IMG/VR virus record: IMGVR_UViG_3300050159_000048
Length of the DNA stretch: 64,000 bases
From: a virus
Lineage: Duplodnaviria; Caudoviricetes
Strand: one strand, 5' to 3'
Made by a program: the position numbers and the translations under genes. The notes under the pieces are model-generated. The model was given only the letters and a program-made list of their open reading frames with translations. It was not told the origin of the DNA and ran no database searches. The first letter of the stretch is position 1; each line of letters opens with the position of its first letter. Of the stretch, positions 19,451 through 38,802 are shown piece by piece.

Positions 19451-19485
19451 GTGGTTTTTAACCTTCTTGGTGAGGTTTTGAGTTG

Positions 19486-19514
19486 ATAGTACGCCAAAAA
19501 ATTGGCAAGGGCAA
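19486..19514 (-). promoter_or_regulatory. sigma70 promoter of the gp55-gp47-gp46 operon
   Basis: TTGCCC-N17-TACTAT. Confidence 0.6.
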
Positions 19515-19517
19515 CGG

Positions 19518-19525
19518 GATAAATA
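19518..19525 (+). promoter_or_regulatory. Late promoter (GATAAATA)
   Basis: Upstream of the baseplate operon. Confidence 0.7.
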
Positions 19526-19552
19526 CAAAACCTAAAGAGAGTTGGTATCCGT

Positions 19553-20299
19553 ATGGCTTATGATTCAATAAACAACTACAAAGTGCGTCTAGTTCCTGTA
19601 TCCAAGTGGAAGTCGGGCGACATCACCACAATCCGACAATCCGGTGTTGTGTTCGAGGCAACGCCAAACTTCACAGAATCTCGGTCTGCTGAATATGAAG
19701 CGCTTGCTCCTATTCACATGCCTGGATCAATTCAGGTGTACAAACGAACAAACTCGCGGACATTCTCAATTGGTGCACACTTACTCTCGCGCAACGTTGA
19801 CGATGCGCGAACAAATATGCGCTACCTTCAACTGCTTCGTAGTTGGATGCTGCCGTACTTCGGTAAGACTGACACACTGCATGCAAACCAGCAAGCCAAT
19901 CGCGACTCACGTCGCCAATCCGGTAATTCCAGCGGCCAGACCCAGGAAGAACGTATCACCAGCGAAGGTGTACAGCTGCGGGGCGCTCCGCCTGACGTTC
20001 TGTTCTTGTATGCGTATTCCGCTAACCAAGACGGTCAACGCTCTATGAGCACGCCAATCATTAACATTGCCCGTGTTCCTGTGGTGATGACCAACTTAGA
20101 AATCACCTACCCTGAAGATGTTGATTATATTCCAGTTGCAGAGGTTGACGCGGATGGTCAACTGATCAACATGGACAAAGCACAACCATTCCCACGTAAG
20201 ATGGATGTCACAATCTCGCTGATTGAGACACACTCTCCGCGCGAGTACGAAGAATTTGACCTCTTGAGTTACAAGATGGGCAACCTAACAGGATTCTAA
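19553..20299 (+). CDS. Baseplate/tail tube initiator-like protein
   Basis: 248 aa, IHMPGSIQVYKRTNSRTFSI; first gene of the baseplate operon. Confidence 0.5.
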   Translation: MAYDSINNYKVRLVPVSKWKSGDITTIRQSGVVFEATPNFTESRSAEYEALAPIHMPGSIQVYKRTNSRTFSIGAHLLSRNVDDARTNMRYLQLLRSWMLPYFGKTDTLHANQQANRDSRRQSGNSSGQTQEERITSEGVQLRGAPPDVLFLYAYSANQDGQRSMSTPIINIARVPVVMTNLEITYPEDVDYIPVAEVDADGQLINMDKAQPFPRKMDVTISLIETHSPREYEEFDLLSYKMGNLTGF

Positions 20300-20300
20300 T

Positions 20301-20621
20301 ATGGCAACACGGTCAGACCAACAAAACGGCGGACGCTATCAAAAAGGTGGCACCTCAGAAGTTGTCAATGGTGGAATTCGGTGGTGGGAGCGCCGCATTT
20401 ATAAGAAGTCACCTACAGACATCAAGTACACAATCCCTCGTAGGTACCAACACCGGCCGGACCTACTAGCGTATGATTTGTACGGTAAAGCGTCAATGCA
20501 GTGGTTCATTCTGCAGTATAACACAATCATTGATATCATGGACGAATTTGTAGAGGGGGCTGAAATCTATCTCCCCACAACCGCTCGTCTATACGGCGAA
20601 ATCCTTTCGTCCTCAAAATAA
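20301..20621 (+). CDS. Baseplate wedge protein, gp53/LysM-like
   Basis: RPDLLAYDLYG...WFILQYN. Confidence 0.8.
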   Translation: MATRSDQQNGGRYQKGGTSEVVNGGIRWWERRIYKKSPTDIKYTIPRRYQHRPDLLAYDLYGKASMQWFILQYNTIIDIMDEFVEGAEIYLPTTARLYGEILSSSK

Positions 20622-20638
20622 CATAATCGGGACAGATA

Positions 20639-23575
20639 ATGTCAACACCCGCAAGTCGCTTAGCGAAATTCCGTTCATATAGCTACTACCACGTCCTAGC
20701 GATGTGCGATTGTAGCCAAACTGCAGACCTTTTATCAACAAAAGCTGACGTCAATGCTTGGATGCATGCAACGGACGCCACAAAAGCACCACCGCCAGCC
20801 AATACTTCATATGTTGGTGTTGAAGATTTGGGAATGTACGCCCCAAAACTGATCGACCCCAAGGTGGAGACGAGTGGCCGTTATGCGATCTTGATCAATG
20901 GATCAACCGACGCGTCATATGTAATCCAACGCGCTACTTGGTCAACACTAACAGCGTCGGGTGCCGTGCCGCGCGACCGCGGCACGTCAATTGCCGTTGA
21001 AGGCTCAATTTCTGTAGCTGAACCAAAGGGGGTTGCGTTCCTCGATCAGGTGGTTAAGTGCAGTATTGCACTCGGAGTTGACAGTTCACAAGTTGTATAC
21101 GTATTGAAGACGATCTTTGTTGGTCACCTGGATAATGGTGGTGAGGATCAATCCGCAGCCGTAATCTCGGACGTTCCGGGCCTGACTTTCATTGCGTATG
21201 ACGCGACAGGATCCTTCACAGAACGTGGTGGCGAATATGAGATGATGTTTGTTGGAGCTGGTCACGGCGCCGCCCGGTTGCCACAGTACAGCAAAGCAGT
21301 AAATTCGATGAACTTAACTGCTGGAGATAGTCTTGAGCAGACGCTCAAGAAACTGCAGGACAACATCAATGAAGGATACGACAAGTACTTTGATTGTGTG
21401 TATCAAACTGTGTCTCAGATGGAGGGTGGAGCAGAGCTAGCCAAGACGCTCCGCAAGGTGAAGTATGAGATTGAAGTAGGCCCAGATTACAAAGATGAGA
21501 CGGGTCAGATCAAGTACACAGTATCCAACCAAACAAACATCTATAAGAACGGTGCGGGCTGTAACGACAAAGCCCAAATCTCATTCCCAACACAGACAAG
21601 CATTGAGGGTGCAATTAGCACAATCATGCAGATGTGTCCACGAGTTCAAGAAGAAGCCGCTACAGGAGATGCGTCGGATAAGATCAAATACGAATACAAG
21701 ATCCACTCGGCGCTTGAATCACAGCCAGGCAACGACGGGTTGATGGACTACACCATCTACTACCGTGTTGAACGCTTCATTACTCCTAAGACCATTGCTG
21801 TCCAACCGGAGTTTGAAGTTCTAGCCACTACAAATGACGACCAGCTAAAGTCAGACCCCAAGTACAACATGTTGCGTCGCAACATTATTGAGTTTGACTA
21901 CATGTACACCGGCCGGAACATCGACGTTCTGGAGTTTGACATGAAGGTCAACCTTGGCATGGCTTATCTGCAGACCGCTACGCTATCAAACACATTTAAG
22001 GGCCAACGTGAACGCACCGCAAATGTGATGACACAGCCTGCTAACCAGGATTTGCAGAACGTTGGCACCAAGTTAGGTCAATTGGTGCAGACACCAGTGT
22101 TCTTCGGATCGCACATGAAGGCGCCTATGTTTGCGAACCAACAGAACGCAAGCAATGCCATTCAATCAGCGTATACGATGTCAAAACATGCGTCCTTGGA
22201 AGTCACAGAAGCTAGCATGACGATTGTGGGCAATGATCTGTTGCTTGGGTCCGCAAATGAGACGACTTCTCCTGCTGCTATCCGGCGTGCTGCAGCACGA
22301 AATACTACTGAAACAAATACTCCAACGGAAGCTAACTTTGCGGATTGGTCATATGTCCCTGCGTTTGCCAAAGTTCGCATCAAGATGCCTCGCAATAACA
22401 ATGATGTCGACCTGTTCACGGGATCAAACACAGCTGGAGCACGTGATGACTCGGTCGGGTCGACTGATTATGCGGTTGATTTTTGGTTTGACGGGTATTA
22501 CTATGTGTACGGGATGGACCACATTTTTGACAATGGTGTGTTTACGCAAAAGTTGCAGATGCTTGGAATTCCGAAGCGTAGCGCTTTCGAGGCTTCGAAG
22601 ACCAACGCCACTAGGAGCGTGAGCGCCCCTGCCTCAGTTGACTCGTGCTTCAACAATGCAGTTGGCTGCGGTGCTACAGGTACGGCTGGCTCTGTTTCGT
22701 CCAATCAACCAACTGTTGCTGTTCCTACGACACCTCCGTCAGGATCAACCCAACCAACTAACCGCCAAGACTCTCAGACCGTCAATTCTGGCGCTAAATC
22801 ACCGTCGGATGTGCGTGGGTGGGACAGTGCTGATCCGTCGGTTCGTTCTGCTATCGTGGATGCTGCAAACCGGTACGGTGTGAATGTAGTAACACTGGCA
22901 CAGTTTGCCGCGCAAGAATCCAGCATGGGTCGGAATCTCCGCGCTCCTTCGTCTTCTGCTGTTGGCTTGTTCCAATTCATCGAGAGTACGTGGAAGTCCA
23001 TGGTAAACCAAGGAAAGGTGATCGGACTATCAGACCCAAATCCTGCACTTCGCATGAACCATACATATAATGCGTATGCTGGAGCTGCGTTCTTACGTGA
23101 CAACACAGCAGCAGTTAACTCAAATGAGGTTGGTGACCTGTACCTTGCACACTTTTTAGGTCCGGGTGCAGCTCGTCGAGTGGTTGACGCTGACCGCGGC
23201 GGTCGTGGTAGTGTTGATCTTGCAATAATCATGGACGGGTTGTTTAGGAACAAGACGGGTGCTGAGTGGGCTGCAGGCGTTCGTCGTGCAAACCCAACGG
23301 TTCCACTGACCAATTCAACCGAACTGCGTAACTGGGCTGCTCGGACGATGGCAAAGACTCTCAAGCAAGGCGTAGCGGTAGCCTCACAACAAACAGCTAC
23401 CCCTCCAGCATCTGCGGCTGGCGCTCCGCAAGCTTCAACAAGCGCTACCCCGCAGGTTGAACAACGCCGCACAGCTGGTCAGCCAGTGTCTGCGGTGCAA
23501 GACTGCAACACTCAAGCAGCCAAACAAGACAACAGCCCGTCGGGTTGTGGTCCACGTGCAGAAGACAAGAAATAA
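20639..23575 (+). CDS. Baseplate hub protein with C-terminal lytic transglycosylase domain
   Basis: 978 aa. AQESS...AVGLFQFIESTW...YLAHFLGPG near the C-terminus. Confidence 0.75.
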   Translation: MSTPASRLAKFRSYSYYHVLAMCDCSQTADLLSTKADVNAWMHATDATKAPPPANTSYVGVEDLGMYAPKLIDPKVETSGRYAILINGSTDASYVIQRATWSTLTASGAVPRDRGTSIAVEGSISVAEPKGVAFLDQVVKCSIALGVDSSQVVYVLKTIFVGHLDNGGEDQSAAVISDVPGLTFIAYDATGSFTERGGEYEMMFVGAGHGAARLPQYSKAVNSMNLTAGDSLEQTLKKLQDNINEGYDKYFDCVYQTVSQMEGGAELAKTLRKVKYEIEVGPDYKDETGQIKYTVSNQTNIYKNGAGCNDKAQISFPTQTSIEGAISTIMQMCPRVQEEAATGDASDKIKYEYKIHSALESQPGNDGLMDYTIYYRVERFITPKTIAVQPEFEVLATTNDDQLKSDPKYNMLRRNIIEFDYMYTGRNIDVLEFDMKVNLGMAYLQTATLSNTFKGQRERTANVMTQPANQDLQNVGTKLGQLVQTPVFFGSHMKAPMFANQQNASNAIQSAYTMSKHASLEVTEASMTIVGNDLLLGSANETTSPAAIRRAAARNTTETNTPTEANFADWSYVPAFAKVRIKMPRNNNDVDLFTGSNTAGARDDSVGSTDYAVDFWFDGYYYVYGMDHIFDNGVFTQKLQMLGIPKRSAFEASKTNATRSVSAPASVDSCFNNAVGCGATGTAGSVSSNQPTVAVPTTPPSGSTQPTNRQDSQTVNSGAKSPSDVRGWDSADPSVRSAIVDAANRYGVNVVTLAQFAAQESSMGRNLRAPSSSAVGLFQFIESTWKSMVNQGKVIGLSDPNPALRMNHTYNAYAGAAFLRDNTAAVNSNEVGDLYLAHFLGPGAARRVVDADRGGRGSVDLAIIMDGLFRNKTGAEWAAGVRRANPTVPLTNSTELRNWAARTMAKTLKQGVAVASQQTATPPASAAGAPQASTSATPQVEQRRTAGQPVSAVQDCNTQAAKQDNSPSGCGPRAEDKK

Positions 23576-23584
23576 GAGAACAAG

Positions 23585-25021
23585 ATGGCCCGCTCAACAC
23601 AACAACACGATATTTTTCAAGCTGGAGCAAACTCGTCTGATACGCTTCAGACTATCACCATTGGCATGGTTGTAGACACCAACGACCCGCAACAAATGGG
23701 TCGTGTTCGTGTAGTCTGTCCTGTTTGGGGAGATAGTTGGAATAACGTGGTGGAAGATTTGCCGTGGGCAATCTATATGTCACCGTTTGGTGGACAGGTA
23801 CAGGTAGGAACGCGCGGCCCCGGCATTCAGGAGTCTGGGGGCGGTATCGCTTACGGCATGTGGGCAATTCCTAAAGTTGGCTCACAAGTAGCTGTGGTTT
23901 GTGTTGACGGTAACCCACAGACGCGGATGTATATTGGTTGCATTTACGATCAGTTCACTCCACACACAATGCCGCACGGCCGCTTCATGTACGATGACCA
24001 CCCCGAGTTGGAAAAAACATCTGGGGCTCCCGCTCCGTACGGTCCGTACACGTCTGCGGAAAAGTACATTCAACCACTTGCTGACAATCAAAAGCAAGCG
24101 TTCGGTCACCAAGAGGAGCCGAATTATGAGTTCCGTACTCGTGCTGCTGACTTCTCTGTGTCGCGAGTTGACATTGCCCAAATTGATCAAACGTATAGCA
24201 AGGTGCAGGACGACAAAGATGTCACCCACGACGGTTGGACAAACACACAAGGTTACCAAGCAAGCCGCACTGACCCGCATGCACAGTCATCCCTAACCGA
24301 CAAGAACTATGATTCCATGGTAACATCTGTGGTATCTGCTGGATTCCATGCAATCTCAATGGATGACCGTCAGGAAAACTGCCGTATCCGCATCCGTACT
24401 ACTTCAGGTCATCAGATTCTATTGGATGACACAAACGAGCGAATCTACATATCAACCGCTCGAGGTAATAATTGGATCGAATTGGACCAGAACGGTAACG
24501 TCGATATCTACTCTGCAAACAAGCTAAATGTACATGCGGAAAAGGAGATTAACTTTACGTCTGATGAAACCGTGCGAATCTACGGCAAAAAGGGCGTCCA
24601 CATCAAGTCGGATACGGAAGTGCGTGTAGAAGCAACAGAAGATTTGCACCTGAAAGCTGGAGCAAATGTTCGTACACAGGCTGGATCTACGTTATACCTA
24701 CAATCAGGCAGCAACTTGAATGTGAAATCTGGTAGTGCTCTGAACCTACAATCAGGCGGTGCAACAAACATTCTGGCGGGTGGTGCTATTGTTCAAACTG
24801 GCTCTGCAATTCATTTGAACGGACCTGGAGCAGGCTCCGCATCCGCTGCTGGAAGCAAATCAGCGTTGTGGACAAATCGTGTTCCAGCTCATGAACCATG
24901 GGCTCGCACAATGACTAAGTCTGACCAAACACATTCTCCTGAGTTTGGATATGCTGACTCCAGCGTTAACCGAGTAGAACGTGGCGTTGAAACAACTCGA
25001 GGAATGTTCTGGAGGCGTTGA
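23585..25021 (+). CDS. Baseplate central spike, gp5/VgrG-like
   Basis: GMVVDTNDPQQMGRVRV OB fold; C-terminal short beta-repeats. Confidence 0.88.
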   Translation: MARSTQQHDIFQAGANSSDTLQTITIGMVVDTNDPQQMGRVRVVCPVWGDSWNNVVEDLPWAIYMSPFGGQVQVGTRGPGIQESGGGIAYGMWAIPKVGSQVAVVCVDGNPQTRMYIGCIYDQFTPHTMPHGRFMYDDHPELEKTSGAPAPYGPYTSAEKYIQPLADNQKQAFGHQEEPNYEFRTRAADFSVSRVDIAQIDQTYSKVQDDKDVTHDGWTNTQGYQASRTDPHAQSSLTDKNYDSMVTSVVSAGFHAISMDDRQENCRIRIRTTSGHQILLDDTNERIYISTARGNNWIELDQNGNVDIYSANKLNVHAEKEINFTSDETVRIYGKKGVHIKSDTEVRVEATEDLHLKAGANVRTQAGSTLYLQSGSNLNVKSGSALNLQSGGATNILAGGAIVQTGSAIHLNGPGAGSASAAGSKSALWTNRVPAHEPWARTMTKSDQTHSPEFGYADSSVNRVERGVETTRGMFWRR

Positions 25022-25039
25022 TGGTGGGATGTCTCCGTA

Positions 25040-25047
25040 GATAAATA
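25040..25047 (+). promoter_or_regulatory. Late promoter (GATAAATA)
   Basis: Upstream of gp25. Confidence 0.7.
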
Positions 25048-25067
25048 CTGAAAACCATTGAGGCATT

Positions 25068-25451
25068 ATGATTAAAGGTCTTTACCGCGGCTACTCATCC
25101 CACGAGTACCAAAACAACAAACGATTCAACCTCACTGACGTAGAGTTGGTGAAGTTGGATCTGCTCAATCACATCTTCACTCGTCGGGGTGAACGGGTGA
25201 TGATGCCTACGTTTGGTACCCGGATCCCCGACCTGCCTTTTGAACCTCTAGATCAACTGACCTTGGACGTACTAGAGGAAGACCTGCGCGCAGTATTCAC
25301 CTTCGATCCAAGGGTTGAGCTACTAAAACTAAACATCATTCCACTGTATGATCAAAATGCTGTAATTGCCAGCGCTCGCCTGCAATACATTGAGCTGAAT
25401 ATGGTGGACAATCTAGATATCAACCTCGTTTTTGAAGGTACTACACAATGA
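25068..25451 (+). CDS. Baseplate wedge protein gp25-like
   Basis: TRRGERVMMPTFGTRI, FDPRV. Confidence 0.9.
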   Translation: MIKGLYRGYSSHEYQNNKRFNLTDVELVKLDLLNHIFTRRGERVMMPTFGTRIPDLPFEPLDQLTLDVLEEDLRAVFTFDPRVELLKLNIIPLYDQNAVIASARLQYIELNMVDNLDINLVFEGTTQ

Positions 25452-28400
25452 GCCGACTAGTCGCAAGAGCCGAATCATGGGAGCGCGCGTACGAAGCATT
25501 CCAAGACATCAACTTTGCAGCGTTTGACTATGATACAGTCAAACGTAGCATCCTTGACTACGTCAAGCTACACTTTCCTGAGACATTCAATGACTTCATT
25601 GAATCAAGTGAGTTCGTTGCAATCGTAGAAGCCTTTGCGTATATCGCTGAATTGATGGCGTATCGCATTGATGTAACCGCGCATGAAAACTTCATTAGCA
25701 CTGCTCAACGCAAGGACTCGATCCTGCGTTTGGCAAAGCTCGTATCCTACTCAGCATCACGGGCATTACCTGCACGTGGTCTGGTTAAGATCACATCTGT
25801 ATCAACCACTGAAACTGTAATTGACGCAAATGGTATCAACCTTGCGAATCGCACAATCCGTTGGAATGATACAAGCAACTCGAATTGGAAGGATCAGTTC
25901 ATCCTGGTGATGAACCGCGTGTTGGAGCAAGAGTTTGGCACTGTAAGCCCAACTGATCGTTTCCAAATTCAGGACGTGTTGTTTGAAACGTATACGTGGA
26001 ATCTAACTCCGCTGTCAAACGGTGTATTCACATACACTGCAACGATCAACGGCACGGCAGCTCCGTTGGAGCTGATCCCTGTTGCGTATGATTCCAAGCT
26101 TGGAATCATCGAACGTCGTCCTCAAAACAACACAAACTTCTCATTTGTGTACGGCCAAGATGGCCTTGGTGATGGTTCTGACACAACTGGCTTCTTTTGT
26201 TTCACAAAACAAGGTCAGCTGCAACGTTTCCGCACCACATTCGACGGAGTGACGCCAAACCAAACATATGACGTCACTGTATCAAACGTAAATGACACCG
26301 ACATCTGGGTTAACGCGGTAGACGCATCAACCGGTGCAACTAAAGACGAACCGTCCTTGCTACCATATCGCCGTGAAACCCTACAAGGTAAGTCAGGTGA
26401 GTGGGTACAGGTTGACTTAGCTCACGCGCAGAACGTCATATTCAACACAAACCCACGCCGCAACAAGTACGAAATCGAAACACGTTCTGATAACAGTGTA
26501 CGCATCCTGTTTGGTGACGGTGAGTTTGCAGACGTTCCTAACGGAACCTTCGATATTTGGGTTCGTACGTCGCTTGATGCAGACATTGTTGTTCCGCAAG
26601 CCTCTGTTGTCAACACACCTGCAACGTTCACATATACTGACTCGTTTGGCCGCATCCAGACATTCACGTTCACATTCTCTTTGATCAACTCTCTGCAGAA
26701 TGCTTCTGCGTCGGAAACGATCGAACACGTTCGGGTCACAGCTCCTGCTGTGTACTACTCCCAAGACCGCATGGTTAACGGCGAAGATTACAACGTGTAT
26801 ATGCTTCAGGATCCATCAATTCTGAAATTGCGTTCGCTGAACCGCACGTTTGCTGGTGATTCAAAGTTCATTCCGTGGCATGACGCCTCAACCACATATG
26901 AAAATGTGAAGATTTTCGGTGATGATGGTATTTTGTACTTCCAAAACATAGGAAACACCACAACAACGCCAATTGTTGACCTCACATCTCTGATCACGAC
27001 ATATATTGAGCCGCTGCTATCGTCAACTGACATCTTCCTACAGCTTGTCAGCTTGGGTGTGCCCGTTGCTTCGTACCGTCGAGTGTTTAATGCAAACGAA
27101 CGCGTTCGTATCCAAGCAGCGCTAACACCACCCCCAGTCCCTGCTAAGGCCGAGTTGTATTACAACCTGACGACGTTTGAATGGTACGCAATCAAGGAAT
27201 CGGAAGATCCAGCTGTTGCCCTGGCTAGCTATGGATGGAGCTCTGGACAATTCCACACCACGCCTCTGATCATCGTCAACCAATCGTCAATCTACGAGAC
27301 TAGCTACAACGTTACTCGCAACGCTCGTCGTATGGTGTTCCAGAGTCAAACAACACAATTTTGGAACACAAATCAATCAGAGCGTGTGATCGATTATGAC
27401 ACCCTTCGATCTAGCTACGATCAGGTGGTTGTCATGCAAGCCAACGTCAACTACAACCGAACCGGTGTTCTTCAACAGAACTGGAAGTTTGACGTTCTAA
27501 GCCAAGAGCTGATTGATAGCGGCACCAATGCTGGATTGCCTGACCCGCAGCGCCTGTCAGTCATTCCGTCGGATGAGAACCAAGACGGTATTCCTGACTA
27601 CCTAACAGTGGATGAAGCGGTGTATCACTACGGTGTTGCTGATATTATGATGCCTAAGTACACCACTACTGTGCCGAGCATCCCAGTTAACGGCAGCGTT
27701 GACCTAGTGTTACCAATCCCGTACTTGTATAGTGTTGACAACTTGGTTCGTCGTCAAGACAACAATATCCAGAACCCCGCATCAATTGACTACACGCCCG
27801 ACGTTCGCCTGTACCGTAAGGTATCCGGTAGTTGGGTAGAGATTCCAAATCGCCCCGATGCCGGCATGATCTCAATTGACACATACTGGGGGGTTCCAAA
27901 GTCACAAACTCAATTTGTATGGAACAAGATTCGTCTGTACTACCCAATTGTAGCTTTGGCGGGAGGTGTTGGCTCTGAGTTGATGATTAAGGTCAACGAC
28001 TACGTGTACTTTAGCCGCGCATCTCAGACAAGTGAGTGGGTGCCTGCTGACACGACCGTTGACTCAATGGCACAATATGCAAATGATGCTCTCACAGGAA
28101 CCTCGTTGTGGAAGCGTCTTGAGGGCCGGTCGAACTTGAACTTTGCGTGGCTACACTACTCCCCACGTTACCACTTGGTAGACCCATCGCCGTCGAACAT
28201 CATCGACACGTATGTTATCACCAAGGGGTACTACATGGCAATGAAGCGTTGGTTGGAGGATCCTCTGGCAACAGCTCCGTCAGCAGTAACGCCACTTGAG
28301 CTGCGCACATCATACGGATACTTGCTTGATAACAAGATGATCTCCGACACAGTTGTCTTGCGCCCAGGCAATATTAAGTTGATGTTTGGGTCAAAAGCCA

Positions 28401-28747
28401 CTGCGGCGATGCAGGCTACGTTCAAGGTTATCCGGTCAGCTGACAAGACACTAACCGACAACCAGATCAAGACAATCATCGTAACCACCATTCGTAACTA
28501 CTTTGATATCACGCGCTGGGAGTTCGGTGAGACGTTCTACTTCACAGAGTTGGCTGCCGCAATCCACGCAGCGCTACCTACAGAAATCTCGTCAGTTGTG
28601 TTGGTTCCAAAGTATGAATCTAACCAATTCGGCGACATGTTCCAGGTGCTGGCGCGTGAGGATGAGGTCCTGTATCCAGACATATCTGTCAGCAATGTTG
28701 AGATTGTGTCAGGATACAACTCAACGAACCTGCGACTGAATGGCTAA
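25448..28747 (+). CDS. Baseplate wedge protein gp6-like
   Basis: FNDFIESSEF, ENFISTAQRKDSILRLAKLVSY, FGDGEF, QDRMVNGEDY. Confidence 0.88.
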   Translation: MSRLVARAESWERAYEAFQDINFAAFDYDTVKRSILDYVKLHFPETFNDFIESSEFVAIVEAFAYIAELMAYRIDVTAHENFISTAQRKDSILRLAKLVSYSASRALPARGLVKITSVSTTETVIDANGINLANRTIRWNDTSNSNWKDQFILVMNRVLEQEFGTVSPTDRFQIQDVLFETYTWNLTPLSNGVFTYTATINGTAAPLELIPVAYDSKLGIIERRPQNNTNFSFVYGQDGLGDGSDTTGFFCFTKQGQLQRFRTTFDGVTPNQTYDVTVSNVNDTDIWVNAVDASTGATKDEPSLLPYRRETLQGKSGEWVQVDLAHAQNVIFNTNPRRNKYEIETRSDNSVRILFGDGEFADVPNGTFDIWVRTSLDADIVVPQASVVNTPATFTYTDSFGRIQTFTFTFSLINSLQNASASETIEHVRVTAPAVYYSQDRMVNGEDYNVYMLQDPSILKLRSLNRTFAGDSKFIPWHDASTTYENVKIFGDDGILYFQNIGNTTTTPIVDLTSLITTYIEPLLSSTDIFLQLVSLGVPVASYRRVFNANERVRIQAALTPPPVPAKAELYYNLTTFEWYAIKESEDPAVALASYGWSSGQFHTTPLIIVNQSSIYETSYNVTRNARRMVFQSQTTQFWNTNQSERVIDYDTLRSSYDQVVVMQANVNYNRTGVLQQNWKFDVLSQELIDSGTNAGLPDPQRLSVIPSDENQDGIPDYLTVDEAVYHYGVADIMMPKYTTTVPSIPVNGSVDLVLPIPYLYSVDNLVRRQDNNIQNPASIDYTPDVRLYRKVSGSWVEIPNRPDAGMISIDTYWGVPKSQTQFVWNKIRLYYPIVALAGGVGSELMIKVNDYVYFSRASQTSEWVPADTTVDSMAQYANDALTGTSLWKRLEGRSNLNFAWLHYSPRYHLVDPSPSNIIDTYVITKGYYMAMKRWLEDPLATAPSAVTPLELRTSYGYLLDNKMISDTVVLRPGNIKLMFGSKATAAMQATFKVIRSADKTLTDNQIKTIIVTTIRNYFDITRWEFGETFYFTELAAAIHAALPTEISSVVLVPKYESNQFGDMFQVLAREDEVLYPDISVSNVEIVSGYNSTNLRLNG

Positions 28748-28768
28748 CACCCGGTAAAAAACGTCCAA

Positions 28769-28811
28769 TACCCTCTCATAAATATCCATGAACATAGCAT
28801 ATGAGAGGGTA
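28769..28811 (+). promoter_or_regulatory. RBS-sequestering hairpin overlapping late promoter CATAAATA (28777-28784)
   Basis: 12-bp perfect inverted repeat TACCCTCTCATA/TATGAGAGGGTA just before GTG 28817. Confidence 0.75.
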
Positions 28812-28816
28812 ATCCC

Positions 28817-31800
28817 GTGTCCAATCAGTCTGACCACAAGAAGCCATCGCTTGACATTACTACACTACTGCCTGAAGTATACCAGTCAGAGGTAGGAGAC
28901 GGCGTATTCAAGAACGCCTTCAATCGTCACCTAACAAAGGACGACACGTCGCGTGTTGCTGGTTTTGTGGGTACTGCAAACCCGAGCGCCCTTGTTGATC
29001 GTCAGATCAAGGAGGCGGACGCGCACCGTCAAGCATTCCAACTAGCTCCCACTATGATTTCAACGGTGGGAACTCAAACATCCACATTGTCATTTAAGGC
29101 ATTCCTCCGTCAACTATCCTTGATGGGTATTGATATTGACCGCATGGATGATTGGGCTGCAACAGAACAGTTCAACTGGGTACCTCCCGTCAACGTTGAC
29201 ATGTTGGTCAACTATCAAGACTACTTCTGGAAACCTGCTAGCGCTAACGATGCCCCACAATACTTCACGGTAGAAAACCGGTGTAACAAGGCACAAAGCC
29301 GCGTCCAATCATATCAACAAGTTCTGAACATCCGTGGAGATGCCTTCGTTGTTACCAGCATGAGCTTCGCCACTAACACCCTGAACATTGCGGGTCGTTA
29401 CGATGACGTGTTCAGCACAGGTTTTGATTTCTACACCAAGGATTCCAACAACGTCAATTTCCGCAACAAGTTCTGGACGGTTGAATCATCGTCGTATGAT
29501 ATCAGCACTAACACAACAGCGATTGTTGTACTGGAGCCAATGGCAACAAGCAGTGAAACTGCTCCTCTACAGCCTCGGGTTGACCAGCTGTGGTACGTGC
29601 CGTCGACAGCACAAATGTTCACGTGGACAGGATCTGCGTGGGTTGCCGCTGCTCAATCATACACTATCTCAATCTCACTTGAAGAGCAGCTCACTGTATA
29701 CCAAGCCGAAGCTAATTGCATTTGTAACCAGACTTCTGGTTGGGACACAGCAGCATGGGATGACAATAGTTCCACCGGTACCTCATGGACTGTTGCTTGG
29801 CTGCAAGGTATCTCGTTCAACACCGCTTTACAGTGGGTCGCTACCAACGGTCAACCGGTAAACGGATCACAGTGGTATAACACAACAACCGATGAGTTGT
29901 TGACATACAGCACTGCATCCAATGGTTGGGAACCTGCGCAGCTTGGTCTGTCGCAATTGATCGACCGCCTTAACGGTAAAGCTCTGTGGGACATGACTCA
30001 GGGATGTGAGAGTCAACGCCATACTCAATGGTCTGACAACAATCGCTGGATTCACAAATCTCAAGTGCAGTCATATGCGGACGTGCGCCGAGCTCAGCTA
30101 CCAATCTTGGAATACTCTAGCCGCATTGAGTTGAATCAATGGTCACATTTCAACTACGTGTGGAAATACCGCAGCTCGACGGACGATGCATTCGCAACAT
30201 CCGACTACCGTCCAAGCCGACTGGAGCTGGAACCTATCAAGGGATATTTTGCCGTTAGTATTGGTGGAGCTTGGTACATCTACCTAAGCAACAACGTCAG
30301 CCAGATGGACGTGGACATTGACTACACCAGCACCTTTACTTCGGGGTATCGCTTCCGTGTAACCGACGACTCGCTTGTGTCGCAGGTATACACCGTCGAA
30401 TCTAGCGAGTACCGTCAAGTATCACCATCCGAAGCAGCACACGCAGTGATCCAAGACACGTTTGCCACAGTGATTAAGCTGGTTGAAACCACGTTCACCA
30501 GCTCCGTAACTGGCGGCGGTTCCGCCCACGCCCGTATCGAACCGATGCGCACATCGCGTGGCGACGGCTGGCGCGGTTATCATGTTCACTGGGTGCTAAA
30601 CGACACAGCTACAACGACAACAGCTACGAGCAATGCGTCGGTGAATCCTCGGTTGCAAACATCGCTGGATAGTGAAATCACACCGGTGTCTACATCAACG
30701 CTATCAGCTCACTTTGATACAGGTCAAGCATTTCAACCAGCCAACTTGCCTATTGAAATTGGTTCACTGCATCAAACTGTGTTCGTCGGCACCTCCCCAA
30801 TTTCACGCATCGACTTGCTGGATAAGTTCCGTTACCAACCCTCTCTAGCTGCCGTATACGCTGCTCCCAACACAAACAACCTGCGAGTCTACGTCAATGA
30901 CGTACGTCAGTTCAACACTTACACGGAAGTTGTGGGCGTTAGCACTCGTGACGTAACGGTCATTGGTAACGTTGCAAACACCACAGGCACCGTTGTTGAA
31001 TATGTGCAAGCTGTTGAGTTCACTCACCCGCTACAACCTTTGGATCAAGTTCGTATTGAAGTTGGCCCTGCTGCTTTGTCGGAGATGGGTTGGTCGCACG
31101 TCCCTGTTCGCACAATTGAGGATGAAACTCAGTTTGCTGTTGCCGTTAACAATGGCACTCAACCAGAATATCGTTCAATGGTCTCGATCCGTAAGATCGA
31201 ACAGGTGAAGAGCATCACCAACCAATACCCACTGTTCAACGCATATGATGTTGTGACGGGTGAAGTTGTTGACGCAAACCCCCTGTTTGCTTTCCACGAG
31301 GATGCATCCTTCTACGTCAACACGTCAGTTGACCGCCGCATTTCTGTATCTACAGACGGGAAGGAGTTTGAATTTGAACAGTACTTGGTTGAGGATGATG
31401 ACGGCCAAATCTACGGATACCGCCAAGGCCCGGTTACCGTAGAGTACTGGTTCAACCCAACCACCAGTGTGCTGAAGGCTTGGAAAAATGGCGGTTGGGT
31501 CACTAAGCTACCCGTACCACTGGCGCTGGGCGTTGTGTCGTACGTCACACCCACCATTGCCACCATAGCACCCGCAGCGGTCGACGGTGCTGTTTGGTAC
31601 CACCCTACAACAAACGTGTTGCGTGTTCGCTCGAACAACCTGTGGACAGTAATTCCTGGCGTGCTGGCGTCGGAGACAGACCCAACAATCACCACAATTT
31701 GGCGGAAGGACGATACAGCGATGTACGTCCCGCAGTACCTTGACAAGGATGGTAACGAGGTTACTATTGGATCCGCTGATGGTGATTGGGGCATTGTTGA

Positions 31801-34800
31801 TCAATGGCGTTACAACCCACAGCATGAGAACAAACGTACGGTTAAGTATTCGGAAGTTGTGACACACTTCAACACATTCCTCAATAGCCAAGATAAGATC
31901 CCTGGTCTGTTGAATGGTGGCGTGTACACAATGACTCAGGAAGACTACAACTTCAGTCGCGGTGGTACAATCAAGGAACACAACAACAGCTTCGACACGC
32001 TGGTGTCAGCTGTTAACGTAACCAATATTACGCCTGTTGGCGTAATTGACTTCGCTAGTGACGAATACGCAACAAACCTGCTAATGATGCGTGAGGCGTT
32101 CACTAAGCAAGTGGTTTCGCTACTGACTGCACACACCCCCGACTCGTTGGTCGGGCTGTCTGACTACGTCGCTAAGCAAATCATCGCCAGCCACGAATCG
32201 AACGACTTCATCGCTCAAATCTACGGCGATTCGCACGCATATGACGAAAGCACAGGCGCTGGCGTTCGCAACTGGGTTGCCACAGCTCCCATGTTTGGAC
32301 TAGCTCCCAAGTATCGCCCTCACCTGAACGTGTTTGACAACCAAGTTCAGCTGTTCCACCACGACGGTCACCGCTCCGCCATCACATATCCTGTAGCTGA
32401 ACAAGACCGTTACTCACGCTTGGTGTGCGCTGCAACAGATACTCGCGGAGGTACCGTCGGTCTCGTGAAGACAACTACACCACCGTCAACATTCTCGGCA
32501 TTTGTATCAGAATATGGCTTCGACGTGCGTCCAGGAGCATACTGGTATCGTGTTGGTGGTGGCGTACGTCAACTGTACCGTCTGTCAGCCTTGACCGTAT
32601 CCGCAACTGCTCCGTCATTGTATGACTCAAGTGGTGTAGAAATCCCTGACGGAACTCTGTACTACAACTTCGGATCTGGCTACGTGTTCCGCAAGGCTGG
32701 GCTAGCTTGGGTGCAAGCATCAACAACCCCGAATGATATTTCAATGCTGTGGGAGTTGGTGAACTTCGTTGAAATCATTGGTAACCTGTTCCTCACACTG
32801 GAGCAGCGTCTGTACGACGTTACCCCTGACGCGGGCATGGTGTATGATTTTAGTCAGTTGTACTCGACAGCTCCCAAGGCTGCTCTATACCAAGCTGCAA
32901 TGCGCAAACGGTTCGACGCATACATTGCTAAAACTAACACACAAACTCCGTTCATTAACACAACCTACGTGGCCGCAAATGCGTTTACGTGGAACTACAC
33001 ATCGTCCTCTATCACAACTCCGCCAACCAACAAGACACCGAAGCAGGTTGCGTGTTGGCAAGCTCTGTACAACCACTGGTACGGCACTCCGTATCCCCAC
33101 GTTGAGCCTTGGAAGTTGCAAGGATTTGGTGATAAACCAACGTGGTGGGATAGTGAGTATGCTGATGTTACAGGCGCTCGCCGTTGGGTGTATGATCACA
33201 CAACCACCACTGGTATGTGGGAGAATATTCGTATTGGTCGTGTTCCTGCTGGCCGTACATATCCGTCTGGTGTTGTAAGCACGGGCAATGCAGCTACGGA
33301 CGGAGTAACACTACCAACGTATGCATACTTCTCCGTAAACATTTCTAACACCACACTGGCTGGTGGATACGGCCCTGACTCTCTCCTGCCTCCGTATTAC
33401 GACACGTCCGCTATTGCTGCGACCATGCCGACTGTACGCTCACTGTACAATCTGTTTGTGACAGAAATTGGCGTAACTGACGCTGACTATGCATACGGTG
33501 ACGTTGGGCCAGCTGAGTGGGCTTGGATGACTTCCAGCCAATATCCATACAACAACGCCGCTGTAGCATTTGTGCTACAGCCAGTCAAGTTCTTGCATGC
33601 AGCATTTGGTCCGCAGTTTGTCAATGTGAATGGCCTGCAAGTAGAAACCACACTGAACCAAGTATACAGCCACCAAGACGCTCTGTTCCACGGCGATGTG
33701 TATAACACGGATCAGGCATACAAGGTCCGTGGTATCAATCAATGGTATGTCAACTACAACCGCTATTCCGGCTTCGACACAAACGGCGAATTCCGTGCGT
33801 TGTGGGCTGGATGGGTGCCTCAACTAACTTACCAGTTTGGTGGTATTGTTGACACCAGCACTGTTGAACTCAGCAGCAAGTACTACGACGTTATCCCACA
33901 AGACTACTCGATCGTTCTTGCCAACAACGGCGTGATTCGTGATTTGTGGATTGACGCATTTGAAGCTACCCTGCTGACAATCCCGTCCGCTGTTGTTCAG
34001 TACAACAACCAGTCTCAGTGGAAGATTGAGTTGGATAGTCTGGCTACTAACGACCGCACCATTGAGTATTACGGCGTTAAGCAATACGCATTTGATGTCA
34101 ACACAACTACAGGTGTGTGCACAGCATTCCAATACGGCGTTGTTGGCGCATCGTCTGCAGCCCACCGCTTTAGCGTGATGGGTGATGAAACGGCTGTGTT
34201 TACCAAGGATCTGCAGTTCACCATCTCAGGATCGCCTGTGAACGACGGCGTATACACGGTAAGTTCATCGGTGTTTGAACCATCATCTGGCACAACCCGA
34301 ATCAACGTTGTTGAAACCATCGCTGGCTCGATCGCTGGCGGCAGCGCTCGTATCACCACGAAGGCCCTGCCGTGGCAAACGGGTGATGAGATTGTTATCA
34401 CGTCGTCGAAAATTGCTCCTGCGCCTTTGTACTCTGACACTTCGTACTTCTTCATCCGTCTATCGGATAACACATTTAAGTTGGCTGATACTCAGTCGGA
34501 AGCATATGCCGGCACGGCAATCGACCTAACGTCCCGCGGCGACGGTATCCAATATGTTGCGCAAGTTGACTCTGCGTTTAATGTGTTCGGTGGCGCTAGC
34601 AACTCCGGAGAATTGTGGTACCACTTCGCGGTGGATACATCTGACGTCCGCACGTTTACTCCGCCGTATGTTGTCGCAGGCATGCAAAACTTCATCAACA
34701 TCATTGACGGATATGCAGCTCGTCAAAAGGATTTGGGCGTACTACCGAACGTGATTGACGCACAGGACTTCGATCCAAACACTGGTCGTGCAATCAACTG

Positions 34801-37800
34801 GTCCTTGGAAACTGAGCGTTTCATTGATTGGGCGTATGGTCTGCGTCAGTCTCGCATCAGCTTGGCTAACTCACACCCCGTATCAATCAACACCACGGAT
34901 AACACCATGGCGTTCACCACATCCTTCCCTGCGTGGACGACGGGTACCATGGTGGCTGTGACGTCAACGGGTTCGCTTCCAACACCACTACAGGCCAACG
35001 TTCCGTACTTTGCAATCATGACTTCTGACGCTTCTGCGTTCAAGTTGTCAATGTCCAATGACGTAACAGACACAAGTTCATACATCGATCTCACGTCTGC
35101 TGGTAGCGGTACTGTTTCTGTGAGCGTGTATGAGCGTCGTAGCACGTATCCGAAATTTGAACTGAACCCAACTCGTTACAATGCCTGGATTGACACACCG
35201 CTTGGTGTGCTGTCAGACGTGGTAGTAGGCCCGTATACGGACATCCGCGTTCAGCAGACGGTGTTCGATCAGTACAGCCGTCCGATGAGCCCGAGCCAGC
35301 TCGTCGTCTACCGTGATGACAAGCGTAGTCACATTGCCATTAGGCGTGATATGGCTAATGACGTAGATCCGACGTATGGCAACGATGATTACAACAACCT
35401 ACACTTGGGCGGCGGTCACTTCTTCATTGAGAGTTACGAACACTTCCTCGTGTTCAATAACTACACAGTTGGTGGTGCTCTGGTATACGACCCGTTCTTG
35501 GGCATTCAAGCACGTAAGTTCAATCTGGACTACTTCGAGAAACAGGATTACACGCTGCGTCCAACGCTGGGTGGGTACTATCTGTTGAATGGAAAGTTCT
35601 ACCGCAACTTGGAAGGTTCGGCTACGGATACGCAGAACTACTACGACACTCTGGCTCTGTCAGAAGCAACCGATGTTGCTCGCCGCGCGCGCTCCATCTT
35701 GGGGTATCGTGGCCGTCAGAACTTCTTGGATCTGCTGAACATCAACAGCAAGTCCCAATTCCTGTTCTACAAAGGCATGATTCAAACGAAGGGCTCTGTC
35801 AACTCCGTGAACGCCTTCATCAACTCTCGCCGATTTGTCGACGCGCGCGTGGATGAATTCTGGGCTTGGAAGGTCGCAACGTACGGCGATGCTCGTACAA
35901 AAATCTATCCCGAGATCAAACTGTTCGCAACTGATGGACTGCTCGATGACGTCCGCCTGAACTTCTTGGGTGATGGTGAGCTGGTTACAGATGATACAGC
36001 AGTGGAAGCCGCAAAGAACGGCTTTGAGTTGGTATCCTTCAATGACAGCTCGCGTTGGAATCTGTCACCAGAGCAACAGACTGCAATCAAGTCCCCGTTG
36101 TTCCTTGACGCAACGGTAGCTACTACTCAGGTGATGTTCAGTGGACCTACGCGTCCTCACCCAGGGATGGAGCAGACCGTTAACGTTTGGTTTGACACGG
36201 TCAGCAAACAAGCATACACGTATAACGTTGTGCAGCGCCTGTGGAATACCCCAGTAACTGACGGTCGTGTGCAGCAAAGCGTCCTGGACAGCGGTGGTAG
36301 CAATACCAACGTAGTGTATGTGCAGCTGGACCAACCATGCGACACCGTTCGAGTCATCCGTCAAACTGCAACAATACAACAGTTTGACATTCTGACTTGT
36401 GCTAACAATACCATTACTGTGGCTGGCAACATCACAGATACAATTACTGTTGGTATCCCGGTCATCGTTCGTAACACTATCACTAACGACAACACGTACG
36501 AACCTAGCAGCTCGTACTTTGACGGAACCAACACTGTTATTACTGTGCTATTGTCCACCCCGAACGGAACGTCGCCTGTAACGCTGACCAATAGTGTTGG
36601 CGGTGAAATCTTGGCTCAGGACTTCAACAGCTACACCACACAGGTGTTCACTGAGGGTAGCCTGACAAGCGGATATGTTCGAGTGAACTCCGAAGTGTTG
36701 CGATTCCAGCAGACCGGATTTGCTGACATCATTATCGTGTACCTGGTGAACCCAGCAGCATCACAAATCAGTCCAGCAAAACTGATTGATGGCAAGTCAA
36801 ACACAGTAGTGCAGCAACTGCCTTTGTGGGATCCCGCACGCGGCCGCCATTCGGTAATTGCATCGCACAACATCGACCTTTTGTCTGGTATTGATCCTGC
36901 ACGTTACCAGTTTGCACCTAACCCAACCTCGACCACCCAGAACTTCTGGAATACTGCTGAGGTTGGCAAAGTGTGGATGGACACCTCGCACTTGGGCTAC
37001 GTACCGTACTACGACGACATGATCTACCCAACCGTCAATGAGCGGTTGTACTCGTGGGGTAAGTTGGCTCCGTGGAGTTCCGTGCGTGTGTATGAGTGGG
37101 TCAAGTCAACAGTACATCCGTCGGAGTGGGATAATTTGGTGACGAAGCAAGCAGCAAATGCGACAATTCTGCAATCTCAGAAGGTTAGCGGAACACCACG
37201 GTTGTCGGTGTTTAAGCGTGTACGCCAAGCCCATAACGTAACCAGCGTAAGTGTTGCAACCAACACGATTACGGTTGCAGGATACCCATTTGTAGACGGT
37301 ATGCAAGTGTTGTTCGATACCTCAGGAACGATGCCAACGGGCTTGGTCGCAAACACCAAGTACGCTGTTGTTGGTTCCGGCAACACAGTATCGCTGATCG
37401 ACGTTGTTGACGAATCTGAGATCATCATCTCAGATGTTGGCACCGGTCAACTGCGCATGATCCCTGCCTTCCAGTCAACTGACTGGAACACGCAGTACAT
37501 CCTACGTGAGCGTGTTTGCGCGTATCAGTCAAACCACAGCGTGAACGTGATTAACAACACTCCCACCGCTGTGGTAGCTTGGCCAGCTACAACTACCACA
37601 ATTGCGTGGGTTCCTAACGCTCCGGCGGATTGGGTGGTCGGTCTGACCGCTGAGTCAGACCGTGTGTCTGTGTATGTTAACAGCGTTCTCGTTGAAGCTG
37701 ATCTGATCATCACTCCTGACACGGTAGGCGGAACACTGTACTACAGCGTAACCCTGTCGTCCAACTACCAATTGAACGAGCACGATCTGATTGATGTTGT

Positions 37801-38800
37801 TCGCCCCATCCACACCGTTACGGATGATGAGGCGTCATTCGATCCAGATCTAGAAGACGACGGTACTGTAATGATCCAGTGGAAGACAGATTACCAGTAT
37901 AGCACCACTGTGTATTCTGGCACCACAGATGTCACATACTACCACTTTTGGGTTGAAAACTCAACGATGAAGAGCAGCAGCGACAACTCCAGCCTGTCGG
38001 TTTATGAGATCGCCAAACAAATTGAAACAATCCCAACTTCCTACTTTGTTGTGCAGAGCCCTGCGGACAGCACATCTACGTCGCAAATTTACGGATACGG
38101 TTCGTCAAACTACGGTGAGACGTTTGGACCTACATCTGACACGCAGCTAATGAAGATTTCTGTGATGTATCGTCAAGCAATCATTCGAAAGGTTTCAAGC
38201 TACCTAACTGATGACGATCGCTACTTTGTCCGCTTTACGCGCGACTTGACCCTGCGCAATGATCTTCGTGATAACGGCCGCAATATGAACCTCAAGAATG
38301 TTCACCACGAGTGGGTAATGTTCCGCCGCAACCAAATTGACACCATCCCGCGCAAGCTGTGGGATCGTCTAACCGAATCGTTGATGGGCTACACTCTTGC
38401 GGACAGCACCGTTCGTGTTCCATCATTGGAGTATGAGCTGTACGACGCATTATCTGGTACTGACACACGGTACGGTTTGGGCGAAAACCAAACGTTTGTT
38501 AACAGGGCTACGGGGTTGGCTACGGTTCTCGCGTATCTGCGTGATCCAACAAACGACTTTGCACCGATGGATATCAATGCGTTCTTTGCTCAGTACTCGT
38601 TCGATACGCCTGAGAACATTCGTATCGCTATGAATGCCATTTACCTGCATTTTAACGCAAAGCATGTCAATGCTATTTGGTTTGAAACGTTGATGGACGC
38701 ACTAGCTGCAAAGAGTAAATATCATGAACTTATGAAGACTTCCTGGATCGCGCTGCACGGTATTCGTGTGCTCGAAGTTGGCGGTCTATTTGACGATTGA
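28817..38800 (+). CDS. Giant virion structural protein (baseplate wedge/fibre-associated)
   Basis: Uninterrupted 3327-aa ORF following gp6; Trp-rich and T-G-x-L-P repeats. Confidence 0.75.
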   Translation: MSNQSDHKKPSLDITTLLPEVYQSEVGDGVFKNAFNRHLTKDDTSRVAGFVGTANPSALVDRQIKEADAHRQAFQLAPTMISTVGTQTSTLSFKAFLRQLSLMGIDIDRMDDWAATEQFNWVPPVNVDMLVNYQDYFWKPASANDAPQYFTVENRCNKAQSRVQSYQQVLNIRGDAFVVTSMSFATNTLNIAGRYDDVFSTGFDFYTKDSNNVNFRNKFWTVESSSYDISTNTTAIVVLEPMATSSETAPLQPRVDQLWYVPSTAQMFTWTGSAWVAAAQSYTISISLEEQLTVYQAEANCICNQTSGWDTAAWDDNSSTGTSWTVAWLQGISFNTALQWVATNGQPVNGSQWYNTTTDELLTYSTASNGWEPAQLGLSQLIDRLNGKALWDMTQGCESQRHTQWSDNNRWIHKSQVQSYADVRRAQLPILEYSSRIELNQWSHFNYVWKYRSSTDDAFATSDYRPSRLELEPIKGYFAVSIGGAWYIYLSNNVSQMDVDIDYTSTFTSGYRFRVTDDSLVSQVYTVESSEYRQVSPSEAAHAVIQDTFATVIKLVETTFTSSVTGGGSAHARIEPMRTSRGDGWRGYHVHWVLNDTATTTTATSNASVNPRLQTSLDSEITPVSTSTLSAHFDTGQAFQPANLPIEIGSLHQTVFVGTSPISRIDLLDKFRYQPSLAAVYAAPNTNNLRVYVNDVRQFNTYTEVVGVSTRDVTVIGNVANTTGTVVEYVQAVEFTHPLQPLDQVRIEVGPAALSEMGWSHVPVRTIEDETQFAVAVNNGTQPEYRSMVSIRKIEQVKSITNQYPLFNAYDVVTGEVVDANPLFAFHEDASFYVNTSVDRRISVSTDGKEFEFEQYLVEDDDGQIYGYRQGPVTVEYWFNPTTSVLKAWKNGGWVTKLPVPLALGVVSYVTPTIATIAPAAVDGAVWYHPTTNVLRVRSNNLWTVIPGVLASETDPTITTIWRKDDTAMYVPQYLDKDGNEVTIGSADGDWGIVDQWRYNPQHENKRTVKYSEVVTHFNTFLNSQDKIPGLLNGGVYTMTQEDYNFSRGGTIKEHNNSFDTLVSAVNVTNITPVGVIDFASDEYATNLLMMREAFTKQVVSLLTAHTPDSLVGLSDYVAKQIIASHESNDFIAQIYGDSHAYDESTGAGVRNWVATAPMFGLAPKYRPHLNVFDNQVQLFHHDGHRSAITYPVAEQDRYSRLVCAATDTRGGTVGLVKTTTPPSTFSAFVSEYGFDVRPGAYWYRVGGGVRQLYRLSALTVSATAPSLYDSSGVEIPDGTLYYNFGSGYVFRKAGLAWVQASTTPNDISMLWELVNFVEIIGNLFLTLEQRLYDVTPDAGMVYDFSQLYSTAPKAALYQAAMRKRFDAYIAKTNTQTPFINTTYVAANAFTWNYTSSSITTPPTNKTPKQVACWQALYNHWYGTPYPHVEPWKLQGFGDKPTWWDSEYADVTGARRWVYDHTTTTGMWENIRIGRVPAGRTYPSGVVSTGNAATDGVTLPTYAYFSVNISNTTLAGGYGPDSLLPPYYDTSAIAATMPTVRSLYNLFVTEIGVTDADYAYGDVGPAEWAWMTSSQYPYNNAAVAFVLQPVKFLHAAFGPQFVNVNGLQVETTLNQVYSHQDALFHGDVYNTDQAYKVRGINQWYVNYNRYSGFDTNGEFRALWAGWVPQLTYQFGGIVDTSTVELSSKYYDVIPQDYSIVLANNGVIRDLWIDAFEATLLTIPSAVVQYNNQSQWKIELDSLATNDRTIEYYGVKQYAFDVNTTTGVCTAFQYGVVGASSAAHRFSVMGDETAVFTKDLQFTISGSPVNDGVYTVSSSVFEPSSGTTRINVVETIAGSIAGGSARITTKALPWQTGDEIVITSSKIAPAPLYSDTSYFFIRLSDNTFKLADTQSEAYAGTAIDLTSRGDGIQYVAQVDSAFNVFGGASNSGELWYHFAVDTSDVRTFTPPYVVAGMQNFINIIDGYAARQKDLGVLPNVIDAQDFDPNTGRAINWSLETERFIDWAYGLRQSRISLANSHPVSINTTDNTMAFTTSFPAWTTGTMVAVTSTGSLPTPLQANVPYFAIMTSDASAFKLSMSNDVTDTSSYIDLTSAGSGTVSVSVYERRSTYPKFELNPTRYNAWIDTPLGVLSDVVVGPYTDIRVQQTVFDQYSRPMSPSQLVVYRDDKRSHIAIRRDMANDVDPTYGNDDYNNLHLGGGHFFIESYEHFLVFNNYTVGGALVYDPFLGIQARKFNLDYFEKQDYTLRPTLGGYYLLNGKFYRNLEGSATDTQNYYDTLALSEATDVARRARSILGYRGRQNFLDLLNINSKSQFLFYKGMIQTKGSVNSVNAFINSRRFVDARVDEFWAWKVATYGDARTKIYPEIKLFATDGLLDDVRLNFLGDGELVTDDTAVEAAKNGFELVSFNDSSRWNLSPEQQTAIKSPLFLDATVATTQVMFSGPTRPHPGMEQTVNVWFDTVSKQAYTYNVVQRLWNTPVTDGRVQQSVLDSGGSNTNVVYVQLDQPCDTVRVIRQTATIQQFDILTCANNTITVAGNITDTITVGIPVIVRNTITNDNTYEPSSSYFDGTNTVITVLLSTPNGTSPVTLTNSVGGEILAQDFNSYTTQVFTEGSLTSGYVRVNSEVLRFQQTGFADIIIVYLVNPAASQISPAKLIDGKSNTVVQQLPLWDPARGRHSVIASHNIDLLSGIDPARYQFAPNPTSTTQNFWNTAEVGKVWMDTSHLGYVPYYDDMIYPTVNERLYSWGKLAPWSSVRVYEWVKSTVHPSEWDNLVTKQAANATILQSQKVSGTPRLSVFKRVRQAHNVTSVSVATNTITVAGYPFVDGMQVLFDTSGTMPTGLVANTKYAVVGSGNTVSLIDVVDESEIIISDVGTGQLRMIPAFQSTDWNTQYILRERVCAYQSNHSVNVINNTPTAVVAWPATTTTIAWVPNAPADWVVGLTAESDRVSVYVNSVLVEADLIITPDTVGGTLYYSVTLSSNYQLNEHDLIDVVRPIHTVTDDEASFDPDLEDDGTVMIQWKTDYQYSTTVYSGTTDVTYYHFWVENSTMKSSSDNSSLSVYEIAKQIETIPTSYFVVQSPADSTSTSQIYGYGSSNYGETFGPTSDTQLMKISVMYRQAIIRKVSSYLTDDDRYFVRFTRDLTLRNDLRDNGRNMNLKNVHHEWVMFRRNQIDTIPRKLWDRLTESLMGYTLADSTVRVPSLEYELYDALSGTDTRYGLGENQTFVNRATGLATVLAYLRDPTNDFAPMDINAFFAQYSFDTPENIRIAMNAIYLHFNAKHVNAIWFETLMDALAAKSKYHELMKTSWIALHGIRVLEVGGLFDD

Positions 38801-38802
38801 TT

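Follow-up and report, generated by a model that had tools for sequence, protein, structure and literature searches.

A late promoter within a hairpin as a probable translational gate on a giant virion gene of an uncultured jumbo myovirus

Introduction

In bacteriophage T4, long transcripts of genes e, soc, 49 and I-TevI keep the Shine-Dalgarno sequence (SD) or the AUG sequestered, while a late promoter lies just upstream and the late transcripts of these genes are made without the 5' strand of the helix (PMC3014915). In gene e, which encodes lysozyme, the late promoters are located inside the inhibitory start-site hairpin (McPheeters et al. 1986, reviewed in PMC3014915). The promoter-in-hairpin gate is also established for I-TevII, I-TevIII, segB and mobE of Aeh1 (PMC2988022). 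Here, a hairpin that resembles these gates is described in a 64,000-nt stretch of DNA (hereafter the window) from the IMG/VR virus record IMGVR_UViG_3300050159_000048, where it lies between baseplate genes and a gene encoding a 3327-aa virion structural protein (hereafter the giant gene). A first-pass annotation made from the letters had suggested that this hairpin uncouples the giant protein from upstream baseplate read-through mRNA, thereby setting timing or stoichiometry.

T4 gene e offers the closest comparison. As in gene e, the SD or the start codon is sequestered in a helix, and the 5' strand of this helix overlaps or adjoins a TATAAATA-type box. Short transcripts of gene e lack the 5' strand and are translated, whereas longer ones are silent, and the same layout is proposed here. 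The two loci differ in that their sequences are unrelated, the window having the box CATAAATA, a GTG start and a 10-kb structural gene. They also differ in the upstream message: the long transcripts of T4 are early or middle and the gate sets timing, whereas the upstream message in the window appears to be late baseplate mRNA.

Results

The hairpin is a perfect 12-bp inverted repeat on the plus strand at 28769-28811, in which the arms TACCCTCTCATA (28769-28780) and TATGAGAGGGTA (28800-28811) flank a 19-nt loop (28781-28799). The 3' arm contains the SD GAGAGGG (28803-28809), 7 nt ahead of a GTG at 28817, confirming the earlier claim that a perfect 12-bp stem hides this SD; the 5' arm, which is the anti-SD strand, lies upstream of or inside a promoter box. 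The GTG opens the giant gene (28817-38800, plus strand), a choice of start codon backed by the N-terminus conserved among relatives. The protein matches phrog_10938 (virion structural; E 4.5e-78), with no Pfam match and no PDB sequence match. At the RNA level, the hairpin is the dominant fold (centroid -18 kcal/mol, z = -3.05), and none of 200 shuffles folded equally well. The covariance models of Rfam 15 gave zero matches at E values up to 1 across 28000-29500.

The box CATAAATA, at 28777-28784 on the plus strand, is of the T4 TATAAATA type and covers the last 4 nt of the 5' arm, an overlap to which the first-pass annotation had also pointed. In an unbiased k-mer count, TAAATA was the top enriched hexamer in the 80 nt before open reading frame (ORF) starts, being present in 48 of 218 upstream regions. 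There are 81 copies of TAAATA genome-wide on both strands. About 60 of them sit 10-60 nt before an SD-bearing start codon, several directly after terminator hairpins, and the distances to the start codon are compatible with a promoter; the genome consensus of the late box is N-A-TAAATA. The presumed reader of these boxes is a gp55-like late sigma factor encoded on the minus strand at 18836-19528 (tblastn with T4 gp55, E 1e-6; phrog_234, E 2e-23), the gene of which adjoins gp47- and gp46-like genes in a T4-like arrangement. The genome thus holds both a gp55-like ORF and TATAAATA-type boxes, as in T4-type late transcription, and on sequence grounds the CATAAATA box is a T4-type late promoter.

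In T4 late promoters, an 8-bp TATA box precedes the start site by about one helical turn (PMC2988020), and the transcription start of the giant gene is therefore predicted about 6 nt past the box and inside the loop, at 28789-28792 (near 28790, plus strand). Because the 5' arm lies upstream of or within the box, a promoter-proximal RNA cannot contain this arm wherever its exact start is; any start downstream of the box excludes it, as in the T4 gates. The energetic consequence was computed as the cost of opening the stretch from the SD through the start codon. This cost is 20.0 kcal/mol in the read-through RNA and 6.4 kcal/mol in the RNA from the predicted start, and the former value is the same for RNAs that extend 60, 120 or 200 nt upstream.

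These data are consistent with the following mechanism. RNA polymerase carrying the gp55-like sigma factor would initiate about 6 nt downstream of the CATAAATA box, within the loop, and the resulting RNA would contain only the 3' arm, leaving GAGAGGG and the GTG open for synthesis of the giant protein. RNA that starts at promoters farther upstream and reads through the last baseplate gene before the hairpin would contain both arms, and in such RNA the 12-bp helix would lock the SD and prevent ribosomes from initiating on the 10-kb ORF. The output of the giant protein would then be set only by its own promoter, a weak GTG start and a moderately structured ribosome-binding site (RBS), and the gene would be insulated from the more abundant baseplate message. 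We consider it probable, from the sequence evidence, that the hairpin is a T4-type translational gate through which the giant gene is translated only from its own late-promoter transcripts.

The gene order around the hairpin makes read-through plausible. The window comes from one virus contig of 183,069 bp, which belongs to an uncultured jumbo myovirus; the nearest cultured relatives of this phage at the protein level are the Xanthomonas phages XacN1 and Xoo-sp13, the Stenotrophomonas phages CM1 and RAS14, and the Ralstonia phage RsoM2USA. These relatives exist at the protein level only: a megablast search of 25000-33000 against the phage collection gave zero matches. The hairpin is preceded by co-oriented baseplate genes encoding a transglycosylase-bearing tail protein, a gp5-like hub, a gp25-like protein and a gp6-like wedge protein. 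The proposed source of read-through is the gp6-like gene (25448-28747, plus strand; 1099 aa; phrog_10646, E 8e-272), the product of which shares 45-49% amino-acid identity with those of the cultured relatives. Between its stop codon and the 5' arm are 21 nt, and the whole gap to the giant gene spans 69 nt. No terminator-like site was found in this gap, nor did the scan find any above chance across 19000-38900. In addition, the box GATAAATA occurs on the plus strand both at the head of the baseplate block (19518-19525) and before the gp25-like gene (25040-25047). With no terminator in the gap and TAAATA boxes upstream, read-through RNA containing both arms is expected. Host-type promoters are not enriched, sigma-70-like sites being at chance level (19 found, 20.9 expected). 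From gene order alone, the giant gene occupies the position of T4 gene 7 and may be an analogue of gp7.

To assess conservation, a profile of the N-terminus of the giant protein was used to collect 80 IMG/VR loci and one genome contig, which gave 68 distinct upstream regions. A TAAATA box precedes the start codon in all 68, at a distance of 18-42 nt (median 27.5), and the median intergenic gap is 67 nt. Of these relatives, 53 begin the gene with GTG, 11 with ATG and 4 with TTG, and a weak start codon looks to have been selected for this 10-kb ORF. The lock itself is also enriched. Perfect complementarity of at least 9 nt between the pre-start segment and the RBS occurs in 11 of the 68 relatives, compared with about 0.24 expected. 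Relative to shuffled 5' segments, the duplex energy is significant at p<0.05 in 21 of the 68 and at p<=0.01 in 12 (Fisher 2e-15; Kolmogorov-Smirnov (KS) 4e-7). Moreover, in a swap control that retains natural composition and the promoter, each RBS was tested against the 5' segments of 69 partners, and its own segment was the best in 13 of 69 loci (KS 1e-4). The same test on coding segments from +12 to +38 and from +40 to +66 gave 0 and 1 loci, respectively (KS 0.64 and 0.96), a contrast indicating that the pairing is aimed at the RBS.

In a tree of the N-termini, the window falls in a clade of eight (98% Shimodaira-Hasegawa-like support), seven of which have a strong gate. The stems of this clade all differ in sequence, including 19 bp that take in the GTG in L028, CCCTCTTATAA in L030, GAGCTCC in L031, GGGAAACCTTC in L032 and 27 bp in L041; the helix is thus kept in relatives despite sequence change, as expected for a T4-type gate. 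Outside the clade the gate has a patchy distribution, and the well-supported branches require that it was gained or lost six or more times. The stems of the cultured relatives are weak, with shuffle p values of 0.07 for Xoo-sp13, 0.08 for XacN1, 0.30 for RsoM2USA and 0.38 for RAS14, so that no cultured phage among these four offers a clear model of the strong lock.

Three loci of this family are of separate interest. The junction is remodelled in two metagenome relatives (L026, 1100-1210; L027, 1030-1210): in one, an extra ORF overlaps the ATG of the giant gene (TAAATG) and there is no promoter, and in the other an insert of about 130 nt separates the TAAATA box from the ATG. The third (L108, WAPZ01000234.1) is a 6.9-kb contig assigned to a Candidatus Heimdallarchaeota metagenome-assembled genome (MAG) with a homologue of the giant gene, a TAAATA box and a 10-bp gate, and is probably phage DNA that was binned into the MAG.

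The giant gene is not the only gene of this phage with such a leader. Perfect complementarity between the pre-start segment and the RBS was scored genome-wide at 60 sites consisting of TAAATA plus a start codon. It reached at least 11 nt at three of them, namely ruvC (16 nt), the giant gene (12 nt) and a gene for an HNH endonuclease (11-12 nt), while the maximum among 6000 shuffles was 10 nt. The ruvC gate (15974-16018, minus strand) has a 16-bp stem, the loop of which holds TAAATA and the 3' arm of which includes the SD and ATG; its opening cost is 26.4 kcal/mol in the long RNA versus 1.1 kcal/mol in the short RNA. The HNH endonuclease gene (genome 1491-1814, minus strand; 107 aa) has a 13-bp gate at genome 1819-1857 (minus strand; locus L016), again with TAAATA in the loop. 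Another HNH gene lies directly upstream, at genome 2288-2752.

The ruvC and giant-gene hairpins also have sequence in common. The 8-mer TACCCTCT/AGAGGGTA occurs five times in the window, compared with 0.68 expected, and four of these copies are the arms of the two hairpins, in agreement with the earlier observation that their arm sequences match. The match extends to the 10-mer GAGAGGGTAA, and the 8-mer consists of the SD plus 3 nt.

A census of perfect inverted repeats of at least 11 bp with loops of 3-40 nt found 55 in the genome, compared with about 1.3 in shuffles. Many of them are bidirectional AAAAAGCCC...GGGCTTTTT terminators, and about 30 are not. The census also yielded two further gates. 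One, at window 57422-57475 (minus strand), has a 13-bp stem with TAAATA, the SD and the ATG all in a 28-nt loop, its 3' arm being formed by codons 1-5 of a gene for a 194-aa protein of unknown function; the other lies at genome 161027-161052.

Discussion

If the hairpin is a translational gate, its purpose is likely to be the dosage and insulation of a very costly protein rather than timing. This preference for dosage follows from the late boxes of the upstream baseplate genes and from the chance level of host-type promoter signals, and it is also favoured by the conservation of a non-ATG start and by the 6.4 kcal/mol that remains in the short RNA. The earlier proposal that the giant protein is uncoupled from baseplate read-through to set timing or stoichiometry is therefore supported, as far as can be told from the DNA, with regard to uncoupling and dosage, while timing appears less likely.

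Several observations weigh against a gate of the T4 type. Even the short RNA must pay 6.4 kcal/mol to be opened. The long transcripts of the T4 gates are early or middle, a feature that is missing here, where the baseplate genes have TAAATA boxes of their own; with upstream genes that are themselves late, the classical early-versus-late rationale fails. About three quarters of the relatives have the promoter and no detectable lock, and these carry no substitute terminator before the promoter (1/52 versus 2/17), suggesting that the lock is dispensable and an optional addition in the family. In the tree neighbour L029, the 5' arm is degraded by two mismatches and one wobble, with the 3' arm unchanged. 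Column-wise covariation across ten aligned leaders is modest, with 64% of cells paired versus 59.6% in shuffled alignments (6/500 reach this value), because the stems shift register; the swap tests made locus by locus were more informative.

Other functions of the hairpin were also considered. It might be an element for RNA 3'-end formation or processing that protects the gp6-like message from exonucleases or is cleaved by an RNase III-type enzyme, the pairing with the SD being a side effect. We regard this as unlikely. The hairpin does begin just past the gp6-like stop codon, the genome is rich in hairpins, as seen in the census, and the stems of 19 and 27 bp in some relatives are possible substrates of a double-strand RNase; a stem of 12 bp is short for RNase III. 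Against it speaks the position of the arms: the 3' arm takes in the SD or the start codon in all strong cases, the pairing is specific to the RBS, and the promoter always lies between or on the arms.

It is still less probable that the hairpin insulates the giant gene from upstream transcription by acting on RNA polymerase, either as a pause site or as a weak terminator. Like a Rho-independent terminator, it is a stable stem-loop in the gap between co-oriented genes, and in RsoM2USA and Xoo-sp13 real terminator-like hairpins stand directly before the promoter. Unlike such terminators, it has a stem containing A/T pairs, a 19-nt loop and a 3' arm that is the SD, and the stem is followed by ATCCCGTG rather than a U-tract, which is missing in the relatives as well. 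The true terminators of this genome, with GC-rich stems, 4-nt loops and T runs, look different, and the terminator scan left the gap empty.

A perfect inverted repeat that overlaps a late promoter and has a 10-mer in common with the ruvC gate might also serve a dimeric phage factor as an operator in the DNA or as a site in the RNA, and T4 provides a precedent in I-TevI, which represses its own late promoter (PMC2988022). We find this very improbable, since what is conserved in the relatives is complementarity to the local SD and not the arm sequences, and the 5' arm has no constant position with respect to the box. Whether the sharing of arms between the ruvC and giant genes is itself conserved was examined in the ruvC leaders of five relatives, three of which form clear RBS hairpins, and the idea was rejected: none shares an arm with the giant-gene leader of the same phage. 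Because the two gates share no arms in relatives, the match in the window seems to reflect a similar SD rather than a common factor. That the TACCCTCT/AGAGGGTA palindromes are sites for a single trans-acting phage factor, either protein or RNA, is given slightly less credence again; such a factor would co-regulate a recombination nuclease and the giant baseplate protein, forming a small regulon atop the passive hairpin gate. Finally, a functionless chance repeat, for which only the general hairpin richness of the genome speaks, can be practically dismissed, as none of the 6000 shuffles reached 12 nt and the lock recurs in relatives with other sequences.

A T4-type gate thus remains the preferred explanation, and the gates of this phage have recognisable counterparts in T4. 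T4 gene 49, encoding endonuclease VII, is the direct counterpart of the ruvC gate, because both genes encode junction resolvases. When the gene 49 leader was folded with the same tool, the 5' arm contained the box, and the 3' arm the SD and ATG; the box of gene 49 is therefore in an arm, whereas that of the ruvC gate is in the loop. Gene 49 belongs to a different class from the giant virion gene. The hairpins of the T-even homing endonucleases (I-TevI, I-TevII, I-TevIII, segB and mobE) have the same promoter-in-hairpin design, and the HNH gate at genome 1819-1857 is its equivalent here; the genes that they gate encode selfish nucleases and lie on early or middle messages, whereas the gated gene in the window is structural. 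Relief in T4 genes 25 and 26 comes from translational coupling, with no internal promoter. These two are baseplate genes with the RBS in a conserved stem on polycistronic RNA (PMC2988022; PMC3014915 Fig. 5B legend). Of the three clearest gates in the genome, the one on a junction resolvase mirrors gene 49, the one on a homing-type endonuclease mirrors I-TevI or mobE, and the one on a baseplate-region gene mirrors the structured start regions of genes 25 and 26.

The principle is known from T4 and is not new. If our interpretation is correct, the T4 late-promoter-in-hairpin design extends far beyond the T-even phages and also guards a 10-kb structural gene in a group of uncultured jumbo phages that are relatives of XacN1. 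The late promoter of its own (68/68), the non-ATG start (57/68) and the repeatedly gained and lost lock together suggest selection for a low, neighbour-independent output of a costly protein. Boxes and hairpins of this kind may be of use in annotating promoters and expression units in uncultured phages.

Additional hairpins and palindromes

Perfect hairpins of 12-13 bp that have the 3' arm over the SD or ATG and no TAAATA were observed at four further sites (G000:C1:27756-27793 (-), 63764-63804 (-), 70086-70125 (+) and 72097-72133 (+)). They may be locks that are relieved otherwise, for example by coupling or by a different promoter class. At G000:C1:71110-71210 (+), a 17-bp stem is followed by a T run, GATAAATA ends the 5' arm and a possible small start lies in the loop; this element looks like a promoter and a terminator combined. 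In the window, a perfect 14-bp hairpin is located at 15214-15253, in the 330-nt gap downstream of ruvC. At 14100-14139, divergent TAAATA boxes form an 11-bp palindrome (TGTGGTATTTA ... TAAATACCACA), which separates a 768-aa minus-strand gene from a plus-strand baseplate-hub gene.

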